Assembly: GCA_031416275.1 (NCBI GenBank)
Contig: JANOTH010000119.1
Location: 7,676-71,675, forward strand
From: Ferruginibacter sp.
GTDB taxonomy: Bacteria > Bacteroidota > Bacteroidia > Chitinophagales > Chitinophagaceae
Reading direction: 5' to 3'
DNA: 64,000 nt
Shown: in pieces, positions 15,191 through 43,522 of the stretch
Layout of the letters: each line of letters begins with the position of its first letter
How positions within the stretch are numbered: the first letter of the stretch is position 1
Program-made: the position numbers and the translations under genes
The notes under the pieces: model-generated
What the model was told of the DNA's origin: nothing
The model's database searches: none
The model's input: the letters and a program-made list of their open reading frames with translations, nothing else

Positions 15191-15811
15191 ATGAGCCTTT
15201 CTTTATACAATAAAAAAAGAAAATTTAATGATACGCCCGAGCCTGGCGGAAAAATATCTGTTGACAAAACACAATTTTCTTTTGTAGTGCAACGCCACAA
15301 AGCAAGCCATTTACATTACGACTTTAGGTTAGAAATGGATGGTGTGTTAAAAAGCTGGGCGGTGCCAAAAGGCCCATCGTTAAACCCGGCAGATAAACGA
15401 CTGGCTATGATGGTAGAAGATCATCCTTACGATTACAAAGATTTTAAAGGAATAATACCTGAAGGTAATTATGGTGCAGGTATAGTTGAAATTTGGGACC
15501 AAGGCACTTACTCCGCTTTTACAGATGATAAAACAGCTGACCATAAAAAAGTATTAAAAGCAGGATTGAAAGCCGGCAATTTAAAATTTGTTTTAAAAGG
15601 AAAGAAATTAAAGGGTGAATTTGCGCTGGTAAAAATTAAAAATAAAAACAGCGATAAAGACAATGCATGGCTGCTTATAAAACACAACGACAGCTTCGCA
15701 ACAGATAAACTGTACGACAGTGAAAAAGAAACACCGAAAAACTCACCTATAAACAAAGCGTTTGCTGAAAAATTAACATCGGCTGTAAAAAAAAAGCCAA
15801 GTACAGCCTAA
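15191..15811 (+). CDS. ligD: LigD 3'-phosphoesterase (PE) domain ORF; N-terminal part of a split ligD
   Basis: 206 aa; FVVQRHKASHLHYDFRLE, SWAVPKGPS, MVEDHPYDY, YGAGIVEIWDQG, WLLIKH; ends just after a 9-A run. Confidence 0.93.
   Translation: MSLSLYNKKRKFNDTPEPGGKISVDKTQFSFVVQRHKASHLHYDFRLEMDGVLKSWAVPKGPSLNPADKRLAMMVEDHPYDYKDFKGIIPEGNYGAGIVEIWDQGTYSAFTDDKTADHKKVLKAGLKAGNLKFVLKGKKLKGEFALVKIKNKNSDKDNAWLLIKHNDSFATDKLYDSEKETPKNSPINKAFAEKLTSAVKKKPSTA
15787..15796 (+). other. Candidate -1 frameshift / transcriptional slippage site A9G (A_AAA_AAG)
   Basis: PE frame reads GTA AAA AAA AAG CCA. The -1 frame is open from 15769 into the ligase ORF and encodes KAKYSLRANPQKIHNPVKPMLAK. Confidence 0.65.
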
Positions 15812-15849
15812 GGGCAAATCCTCAAAAAATACATAATCCTGTAAAGCCA

Positions 15850-17730
15850 ATGCTGGCTAAAGAAAGTACAGAAGTATTTGATAGCAAAGAATGGATCTAC
15901 GAAATAAAATGGGATGGCTATCGAGCTATTGCAGAGGTTTTGCCAAAAGAAATTAAATTATACTCCCGCAACGGCAACGTCTTTTCGCAAAAATATCCGC
16001 TTATTGCAGAAGAATTAAAGAAGATAAAACATGATGCTATTCTTGATGGTGAGATTGTGGTATTAAATGAAAATGGATTTCCTGATTTTCAGAAAATGCA
16101 GCATTATGAGGATAATACAAACTTCCCCTTATGTTATTATGTATTCGATTTATTGATGTTGGATGGAAATGACATCAAACATTTACCCCTTACAGACAGA
16201 AAGGAACTGCTCAAAAGCATATTACCTAAAAATGAGGTGATTCAATTCTCAGATCATGTTTTGGAAAGCGGAACAGACTTTTTTAATGCAGCACTACAAA
16301 ACAACCTGGAAGGCATAATGGCTAAAAAAACGGACAGCGAATATTATACAGGAAGCCGAAGCAATGAATGGCTGAAAATAAAAAACCATAAAACAGCTGA
16401 TGTAATTATTTGTGGATATACCGCACCAACCGGCAGTAGAAAATATTTTGGCTCCCTTGTTTTAGGCATAATGAAAAATAAAAAACTTGTCCATACCGGG
16501 CATGCAGGAACAGGATATGATGAAGAGACATTAAAAACCATTTTTAATGTATTGCAACCATATGTTCAAAGCAAATCGCCTTTTGCAGAAAAAGTAATTA
16601 CCAATAATAAGGTTACTTGGGTTAAACCCGAAATTGTATGCGAAGTAAAATTTACAGAATGGACAAAAGACGAGAAACTGCGGCACCCCGTTTTTATAAG
16701 AATAAGAGATGATAAAAATATAAAGCAAACAAATATGGAAGCGCAAAAACCTATTGAAAAAATAATTGCGAAGAAGAAAACAGCATCTGCACCGGTAAAA
16801 AAAACAACCTCAAAAAATGATGAACATTTTTTAATACAAGAAGGAAAAAATATTGTTGAAATTACACACCCTGATAAAATATATTTTTCAAATGATAAGG
16901 TTACTAAAAAAATGGTGGCGGAATATTACCAGTCAATTGCATCATACATTTTACCATTTTTAAAAGATAGACCGGAGTCTTTAAAAAGGGATCCTGGCGG
17001 AATAAAAGCAGGCGGTTTTTTTCATAAAGATGCAGGGGAAAATGCACCGCATTTTATCAAGTCATTTGCCGTGCATTCGGAGTCATCAAATAAAGAAATT
17101 GATTACATTATTTGCAACGATAAAATTACCCTTGCTTACTTAAATAATCTGGGTTGTATAGAGCTGAATCCATGGCATTCAACTTTGCAAAAACCTGACA
17201 AACCAGATTATATGATCATTGATATTGACCCATCTGAAAAAAATAATTTTGAGCAGGTAATTGATGCCGCAAATGCATTTAAAAAATTGTTAGATAAAGC
17301 GGGTACAAAAAGTTTTTGTAAAACTTCGGGCGCATCTGGGTTGCATATTTATGTACCTATGAAAAAGAAATATGATTATGAAGAAGTGAAAAATTTTGCG
17401 CATTTGTTGTGCATGATGGTAAGTGAAATGCTACCGGATTTTACAACGCTGGAAAGAAATTTAAAGAAGCGTGGCAACGAAAAAATATACCTCGATTATT
17501 TGCAAAATAGAAGCGGGCAAACTATTGCCTGTGTGTATTCTTTACGACCAAAAGATGGCGCAACAGTATCTATGCCTTTGCACTGGAAAGAAGTAAAAAA
17601 AGGGTTATCACCCAAACAATTTACCATCTTCAATGCAAAAGAAATTATTGAAAAAAGAGCGGATATTTTTAAAGGAGTTTTGGGACCTGCAACAAATATT
17701 GAGAAATGTTTAAAAAAACTGAATGTGTAA
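15850..17730 (+). CDS. ligD: LigD ATP-dependent ligase + primase-like polymerase domains
   Basis: 626 aa from ATG 15850; EIKWDGYR (motif I), LDGEIV, EGIMAKK, WLKIK, LRHPVF; POL domain PDYMIIDIDP, KTSGASGLHIY, YLDYLQN. Confidence 0.95.
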   Translation: MLAKESTEVFDSKEWIYEIKWDGYRAIAEVLPKEIKLYSRNGNVFSQKYPLIAEELKKIKHDAILDGEIVVLNENGFPDFQKMQHYEDNTNFPLCYYVFDLLMLDGNDIKHLPLTDRKELLKSILPKNEVIQFSDHVLESGTDFFNAALQNNLEGIMAKKTDSEYYTGSRSNEWLKIKNHKTADVIICGYTAPTGSRKYFGSLVLGIMKNKKLVHTGHAGTGYDEETLKTIFNVLQPYVQSKSPFAEKVITNNKVTWVKPEIVCEVKFTEWTKDEKLRHPVFIRIRDDKNIKQTNMEAQKPIEKIIAKKKTASAPVKKTTSKNDEHFLIQEGKNIVEITHPDKIYFSNDKVTKKMVAEYYQSIASYILPFLKDRPESLKRDPGGIKAGGFFHKDAGENAPHFIKSFAVHSESSNKEIDYIICNDKITLAYLNNLGCIELNPWHSTLQKPDKPDYMIIDIDPSEKNNFEQVIDAANAFKKLLDKAGTKSFCKTSGASGLHIYVPMKKKYDYEEVKNFAHLLCMMVSEMLPDFTTLERNLKKRGNEKIYLDYLQNRSGQTIACVYSLRPKDGATVSMPLHWKEVKKGLSPKQFTIFNAKEIIEKRADIFKGVLGPATNIEKCLKKLNV

Positions 17731-17886: not shown

Positions 17887-20800
17887 ATGACAAATACCAA
17901 AACCATATTAATAAAAAGCACTAAAGTAATATTGTGGATTTTTGTTGCTGTATGTATTTTGGCAATCGTTTTTTTCGGTTTCATAAACACAAATGCTGGA
18001 AAGAGAACTGTAAGAAACCAGGTCGTAAATTATCTGGAAAAAAAGCTTAAAACAAAAGTTGTCATTGGCTCTGTTGATTATACTTTACCCAAGTGGTTAA
18101 AAATAAAAAATGTTTATATAGAGGATCAGCAAAAAGATACCTTAATGTTTGGTGAAGAGCTGGCCGTTGACTTGGACATGGTAAAATTGTTACAGGGAAA
18201 CACAGATATAAAGAAAGTATTTCTAAAAAATATTATTATCAATGTTAAGAGAGCGGAGAAGGATACAAATTTTAATTACCAGTTTGTAGTAAATTCTTTT
18301 ACGGGCAATAAAGCCACCACAAAAAATAAGGATACCGCAGAACTAAAACTTACACTTAAGCAATTAATCTTTGACAGGGTGGGTGTAAAATTTGAAGATA
18401 AATATGCAGGAAGCAATTTTAATGCGTACATAAAAAACCTTGATTTAACCACCACTAAATTTCAACCCGACAGACTCAATTTTGGCATTGATAATTTAGC
18501 CGCAAGTGGGGTTAAATTTTACATGACAACGTACAAAGATGTTGAAACAGAAATAGACAATAAATTGCCTGTGGATACACTTACAAATTCGCCTTATAAA
18601 TTCCTTATTTCTGGCAGTCATGTAAGTTTAAAAAATATAGATGTTGAAATAAATAATAAGGTTTCGGGAATGTATTATGCAAACCGAATTGGTACACTTG
18701 CAGGCAACAGTATTTTTTATAGTATAGAACAATCTAAAGCACTTTCTGATAGTTTAATTTTAGACAGTGCAAATATTATTTTTACCGCAGCAAAGCAAAA
18801 GTTACCGGTACAAAAAAATATAAAAAGGGAAGTTTCTCCATGGGTGTATGCTGCCACTTATTTAAACATTACCAACAGCAATTTAAAATTCGATGATGTA
18901 AATAAACCTGCTGCGCCCGGTTTAGATTTTTCTCATCTTGATGCAAAAAATATTGTAGCGGGTATTGCTGGGTTTCGTTATTCAATCGACTCAACAAAAG
19001 CACTCGTATCTCAATTAGCCTTTAGCGATAAAAGTGGCTTTGCTCTAGATACTACCCATGTAAGGCTTATGTTTACTGATACACTTTTATCAGCCACTGA
19101 ACTATATGTGAAAACGCCTCAATCCCTCATTCAAAATTCTTTTCAACTTAAATACGATAGCGTTGCGGCAATAATTTCATCGCCACAAAATTCCTTAATA
19201 GCTGCCACTTTAAATAATTCGGTTGTTGCGTTTAACGATCTGTATTTATTAATGCCTTCCCTTAATACATCTTTACCAAAAGCACAGTTTAAAAACCAAT
19301 CATTAAATGTAAATACAGAGTTACGTGGTAATTTACAAAGACTGTATTTGCCTTATTTGCAGATAGTGGGTTTATCAGGTTCTAAAATTAGTGCTAACGG
19401 AACACTCTTTAATATTACTGATCCTTTACGATTTTCATTTGACCTAAACATTCTGCAGAGTAATATTTATAAAAAAGATTTATTAAGGTTTGTACCACCT
19501 GCAAACTGGGCGCAACTTGCATCGTTACCCAACCTAATAAATGTGCGAGGACGAATAGCAGGGAACAGAAATACAGTTGCCGCCAATGTAACTGCAACCG
19601 CCAAAGACCTTGCGTTTACAGGAAAAATAAATCTCTTTAACATTACCGATCCCCAAAATATAAAGTATGATTTAGCATTTACAAACATGGCTTTCAATAA
19701 ATCGCTCATTGAAGGCTTTATTCCTCCCGCAGCTTTAGCACAAATAAATTTGCCGCAACAAATTGCAGCAGCAGGAAAGTTTAGTGGCAACACTGAAAAT
19801 GTGGATATGGATTTAAAAGCCAGATCAAGTTATGGTCCGCTAACGGTGAAAGGATACATGAAAAATATTAAAAATCCTGACAGGGTAAACTATGATCTCT
19901 TTATTAACACTCCAGGTTTTGCCATTGGTAAATTAATTAAACAGGATTCTATTATTGGTAATGTTGCAGGTGCTTTTACAGCAAAAGGCACAGGGTTCGA
20001 TTACCTCACAATGGTTTCCTCCATAAAAGCAGATGTAGCTTCTCTGCAGTATAATAAATACAATTACCGCAATGCAAAAATTAATGCAGATTTTAATAAT
20101 GGCTTAATAAAAAGCATCGGCAAAATAAACGACAGCAGCCTGCAGTTAACGTATGATATTATCGCAAATGTGCGTGGCAAATATCCAACAGTAAAAGGCG
20201 ACATTGATGTGGATACCGCCATGCTCAATAAATTAAATCTTACAAAAGATACCATCAACTTTTCATTAAGGGCTTTGGTAGATGCGGTTAATCTTCAGCC
20301 TAGAAGTTTAGATGCAAGTTTATTGTTAGATAGTGTGAAGTTGCAAACCGGGCAAAAGTTTTTAAACATTGACAGCACTTCACTCATTGCATCGTCTTTA
20401 AACGGAATTGATTCAATCATTTTAAAAGCCCCCTTTGCAGATGTACACGCTGGCGGTACTTTTGATTATGATAAAATTGGAGAATCCCTCATGCGGTATG
20501 TAAATAATTATTACAAGATACCGGGCTATAAACCAACTGCAGAAAATATAGCCGAGCAGCAGTTTGCCATCAAAGGTTCTATAAAACAAAGTTCTGTTAT
20601 TACTACGCTGGTGCCCGGCCTTAACAATTATGAAGATTTTAATTTTACAGGTAGCTACACATCAGCAGATAGAGACAGTGCTTTAAATTTTAATACGGCG
20701 GTTAAAAATGTATCGTACACCAGCAACAACATTGCAAATGCTATATTAAATATTAATGCTAAAAACGAAAGAATAAATTATGAAGCCAGCTTTGATACGT

Positions 20801-23130
20801 TAAGAACTGTAAGCAATACTTTATATGGAACAAGGTTAAATGGTGCTGCTGCAAAAGATAGCCTTTCCTTAAATGTGGTAACAAAGGATAATGCAAATAG
20901 AGATTGGTTTGGTTTATCAGGAACTGCATTTGTGAAAGATGAAAATTATACTCTTCGTATGAAGGATAGTCTTATCCTTAATTATGAAAAATGGCGGGTG
21001 GCTCCTGATAATTATATTGCTTACGGGCCTGTAGGCATTGTTATAAACAATTTTGTAATAAGCAGCGATACCGCAAAAATTGATATCAGAAGTAAGCAGT
21101 TAATTGGCGATAGCCCGATAGATATTTCGATTGACAACTTTAATCTAAAAAGCATCAGCTCGATTGTAAATAAGGATACCGTTTTGCTTGCAGGCATTTT
21201 AGATATGCAGGCAACGGTAAGCGATTTACAAAAAGCGCTTCCGTCTTTTACAGGTAATGCATCAATAACTGATGTAGCCTTTATGCAATATCCACTTGGT
21301 ACTATTACAGCAAGTGCACAAAAGCAATCTGAAAATAATATTAGTGCAACCGTAAATTTATTAGGTGCAAACAATGATATAACTGCATCGGGTAATTATT
21401 ATTTAAACAGTACAACAGATCAGTTTGATGCAGACCTCCAAGTGAAAGCGTTAAGTTTTAAAACTCTGGAAGCTTTTTCTGCAAACCAATTAATAAACAG
21501 CCGGGGGAATATTTCTGGCAATTTAAAATTGAATGGTCAATTTGCCAATCCGCAATATAACGGTCAGCTAAATTTTGATACCGTTAAATTTTCTTTGGCA
21601 AAATTGGGGACACCTTATTTCATTGATAAGCAAAAAATAGTTTTCAATTACCCACAAATACAATTTCCTACATTTAATGTAACCGACTCTTTAAATAACG
21701 TGTTGAAGATTAATGGCGATGTAACATCTCGAAGTGTTACAGATTATGATTTAAATATAGATTTTAATGCAAATGATTTTGTACTATTAAACGCACCCAA
21801 AACACTCAACAATGAATTGTATGGTTTTGCATCGGTGGATGTAGATGTATCAGTAAAAGGCTCATCTGCAAGACCGGTAATTGATGGCGATATTTTATTA
21901 AATGATAAGAGTGATGTAAAAATAGTTTTGCCTCAAACAACTTATGAAAAGACGGACGGTAAAACCATTGTTCGTTTTGTAGATGTAGACACTTTTAGAA
22001 TAGACCCACCACAGGAAGGTTTTGAGCCTGCAGTAAAACCTGTTTCTGAATTTGCACAGTTTTTAAATTATAACCTCAATATAGAACTTACAAAAGAGGC
22101 AGCACTTACCATTTTGGTAGATCCATCAACAGGCGACGAAATAAAAGTGCAGGGAGATGCAAGATTAAATGCGGGTGTTGACCCCGGCGGAAACCTTGTA
22201 TTAGCGGGCGTTTATGAACTTGATAAAGGTTATTATGATCTAAATTACAACATACTGAACCGTAAGTTTAATCTAATAAGAGGAAGTACCATCACCTTTG
22301 CGGGTGCGCCCATAAATGCGGTTGCAAATATTACCGCAGAGTACATTGCACTTACCTCTTCCAAAGAATTGCTAAGCAACGAGGTCACTGATGTGTCGCC
22401 AACATTATCTAATTCATTCAACCAAAAACTACCATTTAGAGTAGTACTTTACTTAACTGGCCCGCTTACCAAACCCAACATTAATTTTGATATTCAATTA
22501 CCTGAAGAAAGTAATTTTTTGAACGGTGACTTAAGAACAACCATTGAAAATAAATTATTGCAAATAAGAAGTGATCCGGCATCTATCAACAAACAGGTTT
22601 TTTCATTGTTATTGTTTAACCGTTTTGTAAGTGAACAAAGCAGTGATTTCTTTAAAGGTAATGGTGGTGACTTTAATGACTTGGCACGCCAAAGTGTGAG
22701 TCAGTTTTTATCATCTGCATTAAATGAAATAGCTGGCGATATTTTTAAGGGAATTGATATTGATCTCAACTTAAATTCTTACAACGATTTTTCAAATGGT
22801 GGCAATACACAGCGTACAGATTTGAACCTTGCGGTGAGTAAATCTTTTGCCAACGACAGGCTTGTAATAAGTGTTGGTAAAAACTTTGGTATTGAAGGGC
22901 AAGATGCCGCTGCAAAATCTGCGGGAGCAAACACAGGCTTTAAGCCAGATATTACTTTGGCATATAAACTTACAACGGACGGTAAATATTTAATTAGAGC
23001 ATACACAAAAAACCAGTTTGAAGTAACGCTTGATGGGTATGTGGTGGAAACAGGATTATCGTTTGTTGTAACGCTCGACTACGATAAATTTAATGAACTC
23101 TTTAGGCGCAAGAAAAAAGTAACCAATTAA
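17887..23130 (+). CDS. tamB: Translocation and assembly module TamB-like (AsmA/DUF490) protein
   Basis: 1747 aa; N-terminal TM anchor, long beta-taco-like body, C-terminal DUF490-like region (VDPSTGDEIKVQG...QVFSLLLFNRF...ETGLSF). Confidence 0.88.
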   Translation: MTNTKTILIKSTKVILWIFVAVCILAIVFFGFINTNAGKRTVRNQVVNYLEKKLKTKVVIGSVDYTLPKWLKIKNVYIEDQQKDTLMFGEELAVDLDMVKLLQGNTDIKKVFLKNIIINVKRAEKDTNFNYQFVVNSFTGNKATTKNKDTAELKLTLKQLIFDRVGVKFEDKYAGSNFNAYIKNLDLTTTKFQPDRLNFGIDNLAASGVKFYMTTYKDVETEIDNKLPVDTLTNSPYKFLISGSHVSLKNIDVEINNKVSGMYYANRIGTLAGNSIFYSIEQSKALSDSLILDSANIIFTAAKQKLPVQKNIKREVSPWVYAATYLNITNSNLKFDDVNKPAAPGLDFSHLDAKNIVAGIAGFRYSIDSTKALVSQLAFSDKSGFALDTTHVRLMFTDTLLSATELYVKTPQSLIQNSFQLKYDSVAAIISSPQNSLIAATLNNSVVAFNDLYLLMPSLNTSLPKAQFKNQSLNVNTELRGNLQRLYLPYLQIVGLSGSKISANGTLFNITDPLRFSFDLNILQSNIYKKDLLRFVPPANWAQLASLPNLINVRGRIAGNRNTVAANVTATAKDLAFTGKINLFNITDPQNIKYDLAFTNMAFNKSLIEGFIPPAALAQINLPQQIAAAGKFSGNTENVDMDLKARSSYGPLTVKGYMKNIKNPDRVNYDLFINTPGFAIGKLIKQDSIIGNVAGAFTAKGTGFDYLTMVSSIKADVASLQYNKYNYRNAKINADFNNGLIKSIGKINDSSLQLTYDIIANVRGKYPTVKGDIDVDTAMLNKLNLTKDTINFSLRALVDAVNLQPRSLDASLLLDSVKLQTGQKFLNIDSTSLIASSLNGIDSIILKAPFADVHAGGTFDYDKIGESLMRYVNNYYKIPGYKPTAENIAEQQFAIKGSIKQSSVITTLVPGLNNYEDFNFTGSYTSADRDSALNFNTAVKNVSYTSNNIANAILNINAKNERINYEASFDTLRTVSNTLYGTRLNGAAAKDSLSLNVVTKDNANRDWFGLSGTAFVKDENYTLRMKDSLILNYEKWRVAPDNYIAYGPVGIVINNFVISSDTAKIDIRSKQLIGDSPIDISIDNFNLKSISSIVNKDTVLLAGILDMQATVSDLQKALPSFTGNASITDVAFMQYPLGTITASAQKQSENNISATVNLLGANNDITASGNYYLNSTTDQFDADLQVKALSFKTLEAFSANQLINSRGNISGNLKLNGQFANPQYNGQLNFDTVKFSLAKLGTPYFIDKQKIVFNYPQIQFPTFNVTDSLNNVLKINGDVTSRSVTDYDLNIDFNANDFVLLNAPKTLNNELYGFASVDVDVSVKGSSARPVIDGDILLNDKSDVKIVLPQTTYEKTDGKTIVRFVDVDTFRIDPPQEGFEPAVKPVSEFAQFLNYNLNIELTKEAALTILVDPSTGDEIKVQGDARLNAGVDPGGNLVLAGVYELDKGYYDLNYNILNRKFNLIRGSTITFAGAPINAVANITAEYIALTSSKELLSNEVTDVSPTLSNSFNQKLPFRVVLYLTGPLTKPNINFDIQLPEESNFLNGDLRTTIENKLLQIRSDPASINKQVFSLLLFNRFVSEQSSDFFKGNGGDFNDLARQSVSQFLSSALNEIAGDIFKGIDIDLNLNSYNDFSNGGNTQRTDLNLAVSKSFANDRLVISVGKNFGIEGQDAAAKSAGANTGFKPDITLAYKLTTDGKYLIRAYTKNQFEVTLDGYVVETGLSFVVTLDYDKFNELFRRKKKVTN

Positions 23131-42652: not shown

Positions 42653-43150
42653 TTAAATTTCAGCAAATTGCCTTTTTCTTTCTGGCTTAAAGTTCATCCT
42701 TTGTAACGTATTTAAGTCAATGGTAATCCCTGCAATTAACTTATCTTCTAAAACATTTGCAAACGTTTCAAAGTACACAATGGCATCCTCTTTTTTATTT
42801 CTTTTCAACCACCTAAAGCCGTCGGGTAGGTTTTCTAAAACCTCTCTATCGCTTAAATATTCAATATGATGAATATCGGTTGGGGTTAAACCAATTTCTT
42901 CAAGTTTATTAAAAATGAGTTTTAACGGTGCGTTCGTTATGGGACAAAATTCTTCAGCTAGTTCTGTCCACTCACCGGTACCTGTATGAGCGTAGGATAC
43001 AATTTCTTCTTTGGTAAATTTGGTAACAGATTGTACAAGGTTACCGCAGTTGCAAGCACCATGATGCCCCCAAGAATGATATGCCCCGTTTTTTAAATTT
43101 GTAGCTGTTAAACGCAATGCATCTATTAATGCTGTAGTTGGATTTGCCAT
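42653..43150 (-). CDS. Conserved-looking hypothetical protein with WGHHGACNCG motif
   Basis: 165 aa, soluble; Cys/His cluster near the N-terminus plus a further Cys and HH. Confidence 0.8.
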   Translation of the reverse strand: MANPTTALIDALRLTATNLKNGAYHSWGHHGACNCGNLVQSVTKFTKEEIVSYAHTGTGEWTELAEEFCPITNAPLKLIFNKLEEIGLTPTDIHHIEYLSDREVLENLPDGFRWLKRNKKEDAIVYFETFANVLEDKLIAGITIDLNTLQRMNFKPERKRQFAEI

Positions 43151-43522
43151 GTAGTAAAATTAATTCTTTACATTAATTTCAAAAAGAAAATACTGTTGAA
43201 ATAAGGAAATTTTAAGATGTGCTGCATAGTCGTTTTTCACTTGAGGATAAAAAAAAACCCCAAAAAAAGAAGGAAATTAAAAATGTTAAATAAATCAGCT
43301 AGCCTCAAAAAATAAAAATTTATCCTACGCTTTTAAAAAGCAATTATTTTCTTTGCTTTATTGAGGTAATAATAATGTGAACAAAAACTTTTTCTCTTCT
43401 GCAGCAGTCAAATCCTAATTCAATTAATTTTTTTTACTATTTAGGGAGTTTGTAAAACCCTAATCACATTAAATGCGTAGTTTAGCATCTCTTAATTAAT
43501 AACCAAATTAATAAAACCAAAA

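Follow-up and report, generated by a model that had tools for sequence, protein, structure and literature searches.

Does a ligD gene that changes reading frame by a single base between two of its domains encode one protein or two, and does the run of nine adenines at the break represent an error, a boundary between genes or a programmed recoding site? The question is raised by the ku-ligD operon in a stretch of 64,000 nucleotides from a Ferruginibacter sp. genome (assembly GCA_031416275.1, contig JANOTH010000119.1, positions 7,676 to 71,675 of the forward strand; hereafter the window, whose own numbering is used throughout). This operon for non-homologous end joining (NHEJ) contains a 3′-phosphoesterase (PE) open reading frame (ORF) and, in the −1 frame, an ORF for the ligase (LIG) and primase-polymerase (POL) domains of DNA ligase D (LigD), with the sequence T-A9-G where the two frames overlap. 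An initial annotation of the locus had proposed programmed recoding, as opposed to an error, giving both a PE-only protein and full-length LigD. The comparative evidence reported here supports that proposal. We consider programmed slippage at the conserved T-A9-G, mainly by RNA polymerase, to be the probable origin of the two products, with a probability of roughly 0.6.

A ligD gene divided between two frames

The window derives from a metagenome-assembled genome (MAG) of 410 contigs that is 93% complete and has a G+C content of 36%. The PE ORF, the A9 run, the PE stop codon, the open −1 frame and the 846-aa fusion described in the initial annotation were all verified on the sequence (Table 1). 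The stop codon of ku lies 2 nt ahead of the PE ORF, whose 3′ end reads ...GCT GTA AAA AAA AAG CCA AGT ACA GCC TAA. In the −1 frame, which carries the ligase (the LIG frame), the open stretch begins at 15769, 18 nt ahead of the A run, and extends to 17730; it translates as KINIGCKKKAKYSLRANPQKIHNPVKPMLAKE..., followed by the ligase and primase-polymerase domains (TIGR02776). The annotated ATG of the LIG-POL ORF is found 39 nt beyond the PE stop and encodes the methionine in the conserved motif PMLA.

Lengthening the run by one A produces a single PE-LIG-POL ORF of 846 aa. This fused protein matched the profile of Pseudomonas-type LigD (PRK05972) without interruption over positions 5-866 of 870, at a score of 813 bits that is slightly below the cut-off of 895, and TIGR02776, TIGR02777, TIGR02778 and TIGR02779 all exceeded their own cut-offs in the profile search. 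PE, ligase and primase-polymerase domains thus occur in the order of a LigD, with ku directly upstream. Further downstream, a very large ORF of 1747 aa (17887-23130) begins 157 nt past ligD.

Table 1 Features of the ku-ligD operon and of the frame junction (window positions)
Feature	Position	Strand	Description
ku, 258 aa	14412..15188	+	Opens the NHEJ operon; Pfam PF02735 Ku, E=1e-50; from the ORF list
ligD 0-frame ORF, 206 aa	15191..15811	+	PE domain and Lys-rich tail ...AVKKKPSTA*; PF13298 LigD_N; TIGR02777, residues 3-167
TGA	15766..15768	+	Closes the −1 (LIG) frame on its 5′ side
A9 run	15787..15795	+	Preceded by T, followed by G; proposed slippage site
A_AAA_AAG heptamer	15790..15796	+	In phase with the PE frame; candidate −1 ribosomal frameshift site
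Linker, 54 nt	15796..15849	+	LIG-frame reading AKYSLRANPQKIHNPVKP; no ATG, GTG or TTG
TAA	15809..15811	+	Stop codon of the PE frame
LIG-POL ORF, 626 aa	15850..17730	+	As annotated; ATP-dependent ligase and primase-polymerase; PF01068, PF04679, PF21686; TIGR02776

The frame break recurs in independent assemblies

T-A9-G and the −1 relation of the two frames were identical in four independent assemblies that stand close to this species (L073, L074, L181 and L016), in which neighbouring bases vary and the LIG-POL protein is 90-97% identical to that of the window (one unscored). Two of these four end the PE frame with TGA where the window has TAA; read in the LIG frame, the substitution (CTA to CTG) is synonymous. 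The same split arrangement was found in about 40 further Ferruginibacter or Chitinophagaceae genomes, which stem from numerous studies and were built with various assemblers. It is also present in the closed genome of the isolate Ferruginibacter albus (CP083388.1), where the split lies at CTG-A10-TTC, 54 nt ahead of the ATG. Consistent with this, among the 120 closest LIG-POL proteins in a collection of 5.8 billion proteins, 119 had a length of 608-666 aa and lacked the PE domain, the remaining one being fused.

An error of sequencing or assembly at the homopolymer, or recent decay into a pseudogene, would be in keeping with the source genome being a MAG of many contigs and with the messy run of two nanopore-derived relatives (L057 and L061). 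However, the same state occurs in dozens of independent Illumina assemblies produced by differing assemblers as well as in the closed isolate genome, and the PE and LIG-POL ORFs are both intact and conserved. Assembly error was rejected because of this recurrence across independent assemblies and the closed F. albus genome. Judged from these sequences, the one-base frame break at A9 is effectively refuted as an error, and an origin by error or recent gene decay is very improbable.

The linker ahead of the annotated ATG evolves as coding sequence

From the run to the PMLA Met, the LIG frame was free of stop codons in all of the 43 loci, and the other two frames were so in 3 and 0 of 43. In the two groups of sequences that could be aligned (16 and 9 sequences), the ratio of nonsynonymous to synonymous differences (pN/pS) of the linker came to 0.58 and 0.35 for the LIG frame, against 0.95-1.35 for the other frames, and third-position entropy was higher (Mann-Whitney p = 0.002 and 0.0002). 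The linker pS reached 0.54-0.72 while the run remained invariant. Most split loci, including that of the window, have no LIG-frame ATG, GTG or TTG upstream of the PMLA Met. Such a pattern is hard to explain other than by ribosomes entering the LIG frame from the PE ORF.

The initial annotation had suspected coding sequence upstream of ATG 15850 and had regarded its Met as internal. The first point is borne out by the coding-type evolution of the linker in the LIG frame. The second holds in part, as the linker is coding but a protein started at 15850 keeps a complete ligase domain: PMLA is the first motif of that domain, and TIGR02779 begins one residue before its Met. Independent initiation at the PMLA Met, which would give a LIG-POL protein of 71 kDa, may coexist with recoding.

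Split and fused genes share the run in several orders of Bacteroidia

The order and the phylum were sampled by way of the PE domain, and 67 additional loci were fetched. Every locus with both PE and LIG was scored, which gave 111 unique loci in Bacteroidota; in split loci, A runs were scored only inside the short interval where both frames are open (Table 2). The run (A9 or A10) lay precisely within the two-frame overlap in 58 of the 62 −1-split loci. The alignment of orthologous loci that the initial annotation had called for thus shows the split and the run conserved over dozens of species, with diverging flanks.

Table 2 Frame relation of PE and LIG and longest A run in the linker among the 111 loci
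Configuration	Loci	Longest linker run (number of loci)
Split, −1	62	A9 (49), A10 (9), A8 (0), A7 (1), none (3)
Fused	39	A11 (1), A10 (5), A9 (17), A8 (2), A7 (8), A6 (1), none (5)
Split, +1	8	A11 (1), A8 (1), A6 (3), none (3)
Same frame, with stop	2	None

Fused genes carry the run as well: in 23 of the 39, an A9-A11 stands in frame at this domain boundary. In the fused loci that were examined, gain or loss of one A leads to a stop codon after a tail of 0 to about 24 residues, mostly fewer than 15, so that the product of a slip in either direction would be PE-only. Loci with a run come from the order of the window (at least four families) and from further orders of its class (three families). 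PE genes from other classes of the phylum either stand alone or are split and have no run. Run-less split NHEJ genes were found at L010 and L064, with ATGA-type overlaps, and at L134, L136, L186 and L187. In some relatives no ligase immediately follows the PE ORF, which stands alone (L009 in genome G002, L147, L154, L157, L185 and L188) or, in L005 (G007, contig C44), continues as an open frame of some 520 aa, to which the ligase query gave no match.

In a FastTree phylogeny of 95 LigD sequences, which represents the gene and not the species, the clade of the window (n = 44, support 99) comprises 40 loci that are split with a run and 3 that are fused with a run. The T and G that flank the run are invariant in this clade (35 of 35), C or G precedes the run in other families, and G directly follows A9 in 62 of 66 loci. 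As judged from these sequences, the 5′ T of the run is a lineage feature and the 3′ G is more general.

A9 is avoided in coding sequence elsewhere in the genome

The genome contains 116 A or T runs of at least nine, and A9 by itself is not rare. The number of A or T runs drops tenfold from length 8 (969) to length 9 (100), against 2.5- to 4-fold at earlier steps. In a crude set of 1431 long ORFs, with expectations derived from codon usage, Lys-Lys-Lys was spelled AAA-AAA-AAA in 7 cases where 104 would be expected, and with the run-breaking AAA-AAG-AAA in 82 cases where 26 would be expected. A9 is strongly avoided elsewhere in the coding sequence of this genome. Among the 116 runs, only that of ligD lies at a genuine within-gene frame junction. 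It is not the presence of an A9 that goes beyond chance, but where the run lies and that it is conserved at a frame junction. Given that A9 is avoided elsewhere and kept at this spot across several orders, the run is not a side effect of base composition.

Two other runs were inspected individually. The second A9 of the window (43249-43257) is followed by CCCC and A7 in an A-rich intergenic region upstream of a divergent ORF (42653-43150, minus strand). Outside the window, an A10 at C250:6575-6584 was the only other one of the 116 runs with the look of a junction. It was considered as a recoding site and rejected, as it is an ordinary overlap in which the downstream gene has its own ATG. There, the end of a Tag-like DNA-3-methyladenine glycosylase (...KKVKKK*) overlaps the start of a P-loop protein (MEKSKKKIVVIGPESTGKS...); the run encodes KKK in both frames, and slippage would fuse or truncate the two genes.

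Features of the run fit slippage by RNA polymerase

Among the 58 −1-split loci that carry it, the run is not tied to one codon phase, since all three are represented (37/13/8). In the most frequent of them, the first base of the run falls on a third position where other bases would be synonymous, yet it is invariably A. The length of the run in split loci is 9-10, with A8 never and A7 once observed, which is roughly as long as the RNA:DNA hybrid in RNA polymerase (PMC5009743). No conserved RNA structure was detected downstream, where the RNAalifold consensus was empty or negligible in the groups of 16 and 9 sequences and z-scores of single-sequence structures were mostly near 0. The hairpin GCC-TAAG-GGC that the initial annotation had placed after the run is present, but weak, lineage-specific and not conserved. 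Upstream, visual inspection of 14 nt ahead of the run showed no motif resembling a Shine-Dalgarno (SD) sequence, and Bacteroidia ribosomes make no use of SD-type pairing or stimulators (PMC9976891).

The junction has two of the sequence features that programmed transcriptional slippage calls for, an A/T homopolymer of about 8-9 or more (here A9) whose presence and length are conserved independently of codon phase amid diverging flanks. With respect to programmed −1 ribosomal frameshifting, an in-phase X_XXY_YYZ heptamer is present, as any in-phase A9 holds one and that of the window, A_AAA_AAG, is the best of its kind, but a conserved stimulatory element is not. Together, the length of 9-10, the independence of codon phase and the lack of conserved structure suggest that slippage by RNA polymerase fits better. 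The description of the site as a textbook A_AAA_AAG is therefore correct as to the heptamer, while its ribosomal emphasis was probably misplaced in view of the three phases, the length of 9-10 and the missing structure; transcriptional slippage, which the initial annotation had listed as an option, appears to be the better fit.

Only the UUU anticodon was found for tRNA-Lys in this 93%-complete genome. In E. coli, having tRNA-Lys(UUU) only favours shifting on A_AAA_AAG, as AAG becomes shift-prone. A BLAST-based search detected tRNA-Lys(CUU) in F. albus, G013, G066, G075 and G079, and did not find it in the genome of the window (G000) or in G001, G005, G006, G007, G010, G025, G064, G067, G072 and G074. 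The CUU carriers for which the ligD junction was seen (G013 and F. albus) are split at an A10 followed by T, with no AAG; the non-carriers for which it was seen (G000, G005 and G010) have A9 followed by G. This patchy distribution is suggestive, but too thin to discriminate between ribosome and polymerase. In G010 (contig C7), ARAGORN also predicted a tRNA with a four-base anticodon (aaag; L102:1098-1172) within a Thr-Tyr-Gly-Thr tRNA cluster. It is absent from the same cluster in four other relatives and could be degenerate or frameshift-suppressor-like.

A model for two products from one ligD gene

We propose that ligD is a single gene in two frames that are linked by the slippage site T-A9-G. 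Faithful expression would yield the free 23-kDa 3′-phosphoesterase of 206 aa, whereas a minority of expression events would gain one A, restore the frame and yield the 846-aa PE-LIG-POL LigD of about 95 kDa. We infer that slippage takes place at this junction. Its most likely source is programmed transcriptional slippage, in which realignment of RNA polymerase on the nine-A:T hybrid would add the A, although a −1 ribosomal shift on A_AAA_AAG may contribute. The slipped product would be expected to give the junction peptides ...LTSAVKKKAKYSLR, ANPQK and IHNPVKPMLAK (...AVKKKAKYSLR / ANPQK). Where the run is out of frame, slippage would produce the long form, and where it is in frame, as in related Bacteroidia, the short form. 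The run would thus provide a single NHEJ gene with an inbuilt means of making two products. An excess of free PE over full-length LigD, as put forward in the initial annotation, is hypothetical; the in-frame relatives would give the opposite ratio.

It is also conceivable, though improbable, that the run serves as a metabolic sensor instead of setting a fixed ratio of products, in which low GTP stalls RNA polymerase before the 3′ G and thereby increases slippage. Given the G after A9 in most loci, a polymerase awaiting GTP would slip more when GTP is low. If so, more full-length LigD would be made in starvation, in stationary phase or during the stringent response, when no sister chromosome is available, lineages with in-frame runs would respond inversely, and nucleotide pools would control a DNA-repair pathway through slippage during elongation.

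Weighing of the alternatives

Several observations weigh against slippage by RNA polymerase and provide the starting points for other explanations. A protein begun at ATG 15850 would have complete LIG and POL domains, the split could function as two genes, and gene callers annotate two. Lys-rich linkers in AT-rich genomes raise the odds of an A run somewhat. Only tRNA-Lys(UUU) was found here and in 10 of the 15 other genomes checked, and an in-phase A9 always includes a ribosomal slippery heptamer. Finally, the LigD tree requires at least 8-11 switches of state, from in frame to −1 or the reverse, and the pair L149/L150, about 3% apart, differs only in having A10 (fused) or A9 (split); these repeated flips indicate that run length does change at the DNA level. 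Ribosomal −1 frameshifting alone on A_AAA_AAG, of the E. coli dnaX type and with no role for RNA polymerase, would draw on the tRNA complement and on the heptamer, which is in phase in the window and in 37 of the 58 split loci, the remaining phases still holding A_AAA_AAA. It is an unlikely explanation, if one to be taken seriously, since a heptamer needs only 6-7 A, yet the length is kept at 9-10 across the 62 split loci and the synonymous first A of the run is always retained. It would also have to operate with no conserved downstream stem-loop, in a class in which SD-type stimulators are unused (PMC9976891), and in F. albus and G013, which possess tRNA-Lys(CUU) and A10-T without AAG and are still split; two further loci (A8 and A11) require a +1 change, beyond rescue by a −1 shift. 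Rather similar odds, though slightly lower, apply to separate PE and LIG-POL genes without recoding, in which the latter is translated from its own ATG at 15850 and the A run merely reflects a linker rich in Lys and in A+T, or a region of initiation rich in A. That the ligase domain model begins at the Met, that run-less split NHEJ genes exist and that stand-alone archaeal PE enzymes are active (PMC3082917 and PMC3258152) speaks for two genes. However, the LIG frame is open and coding-like for 18-30 codons upstream of an ATG that usually no other start codon precedes, and the run lies 54 nt from this ATG, too distant for an initiation signal. The fit of the run to the two-frame overlap (58 of 62) and the persistence of A9 despite the avoidance of AAA-AAA-AAA (7 against 104) would be left unexplained. 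Translational coupling would predict a start of the ATGA or TAATG type at or near the upstream stop with no coding constraint before it; constraint is found here, and the truly coupled splits L010 and L064 look different.

Phase variation at the DNA level, with tract length switching full-length LigD on and off and the −1 state as the commoner "off" allele, would account for the state changes over the tree and for the L149/L150 pair. A9-A10 tracts are mutable, and in-frame, −1 and +1 states all occur with the run kept. Against this stand the stability of the state within the window's clade (40 of 44) over several tenths of a substitution per site, the tight run lengths (49 A9 and 9 A10) and the A9 found in all four nearby assemblies, which come from different samples. 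In addition, the +1 state is nearly absent, coding constraint on the linker persists, and a repair enzyme would be atypical as a contingency gene (PMC3711429). We regard this alternative as rather improbable. Programmed slippage, mainly by RNA polymerase, is the explanation that we prefer.

Comparison with known recoding systems

The closest parallel is dnaX of the Thermus thermophilus type, in which tau and gamma arise via transcriptional slippage on A9 and which exists elsewhere as a two-ORF dnaX with A10 (Antonov et al. 2013, PMC3711429). In both cases an A9-A10 run lies in a cellular, non-mobile gene of DNA metabolism, each locus has a long and a short product (putatively so in ligD), no RNA structure is required, and relatives show both an in-frame run, with the short form made by slippage, and a two-ORF run, with the long form made by slippage. 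The two differ in that dnaX encodes a clamp-loader subunit, in that the ligD break lies at a boundary of enzymatic domains so that the short product is a complete enzyme instead of a truncated subunit, and in that slippage in ligD is putative. A literature search returned no publication linking LigD to slippage or frameshifting, and neither ligD nor DNA ligase D is mentioned in Antonov 2013 or in the first 300,000 characters of the Atkins 2016 review.

E. coli dnaX, an example of programmed −1 ribosomal frameshifting, shares with the window the identical in-phase heptamer and two products, and the window's genome has only tRNA-Lys(UUU). Unlike ligD, which lacks a conserved stem-loop or SD-like stimulator, it has an upstream SD-like element and a downstream stem-loop. 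Its shift truncates the protein, whereas that in ligD would lengthen it, and the ligD run is longer than required and conserved whatever its codon phase. Transposases of insertion sequences that are produced by slippage on poly-A or by −1 frameshifting (A6G, A7 or longer A runs) resemble ligD in having overlapping orfA and orfB in the 0 and −1 frames that are joined so that the fusion is the full enzyme. In contrast to these mobile elements, ligD is a chromosomal housekeeping gene for repair in a ku operon and its upstream product is an enzyme and not a regulator.

With regard to the predicted products, the fused form has the domain order and length of Pseudomonas-type LigD (PRK05972), and the short form is of the same type as the independently active stand-alone archaeal PE (PMC3082917). 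The activity of such archaeal enzymes makes it plausible that the short product works as an enzyme. Both comparators differ from the ligD of the window in that each is made from an uninterrupted ORF.

Significance for NHEJ in Bacteroidota

To our knowledge, only a handful of cellular, non-mobile bacterial genes use programmed recoding (prfB, dnaX and few others). If the present reading is true, ligD would add a DNA-repair enzyme to these cases. The occurrence of in-frame and two-ORF configurations in several orders of Bacteroidia would then represent a natural experiment on how the ratio of two products is set. It can be tested directly, as a cultured carrier with a closed genome is available in Ferruginibacter albus (CP083388.1).

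A survey of bacterial NHEJ scored all Bacteroidetes as having a "conventional" single-protein LigD (PMC7719229). Such surveys count domains per protein, and for split loci gene callers report a stand-alone PE and a two-domain LigD, or maybe pseudogenes. If recoding is real, LigD architectures would be mis-scored across a large bacterial group from soils and fresh water. For these organisms, the conserved arrangement suggests that the amount of 3′-end cleaning may be tuned apart from that of the ligase-polymerase.

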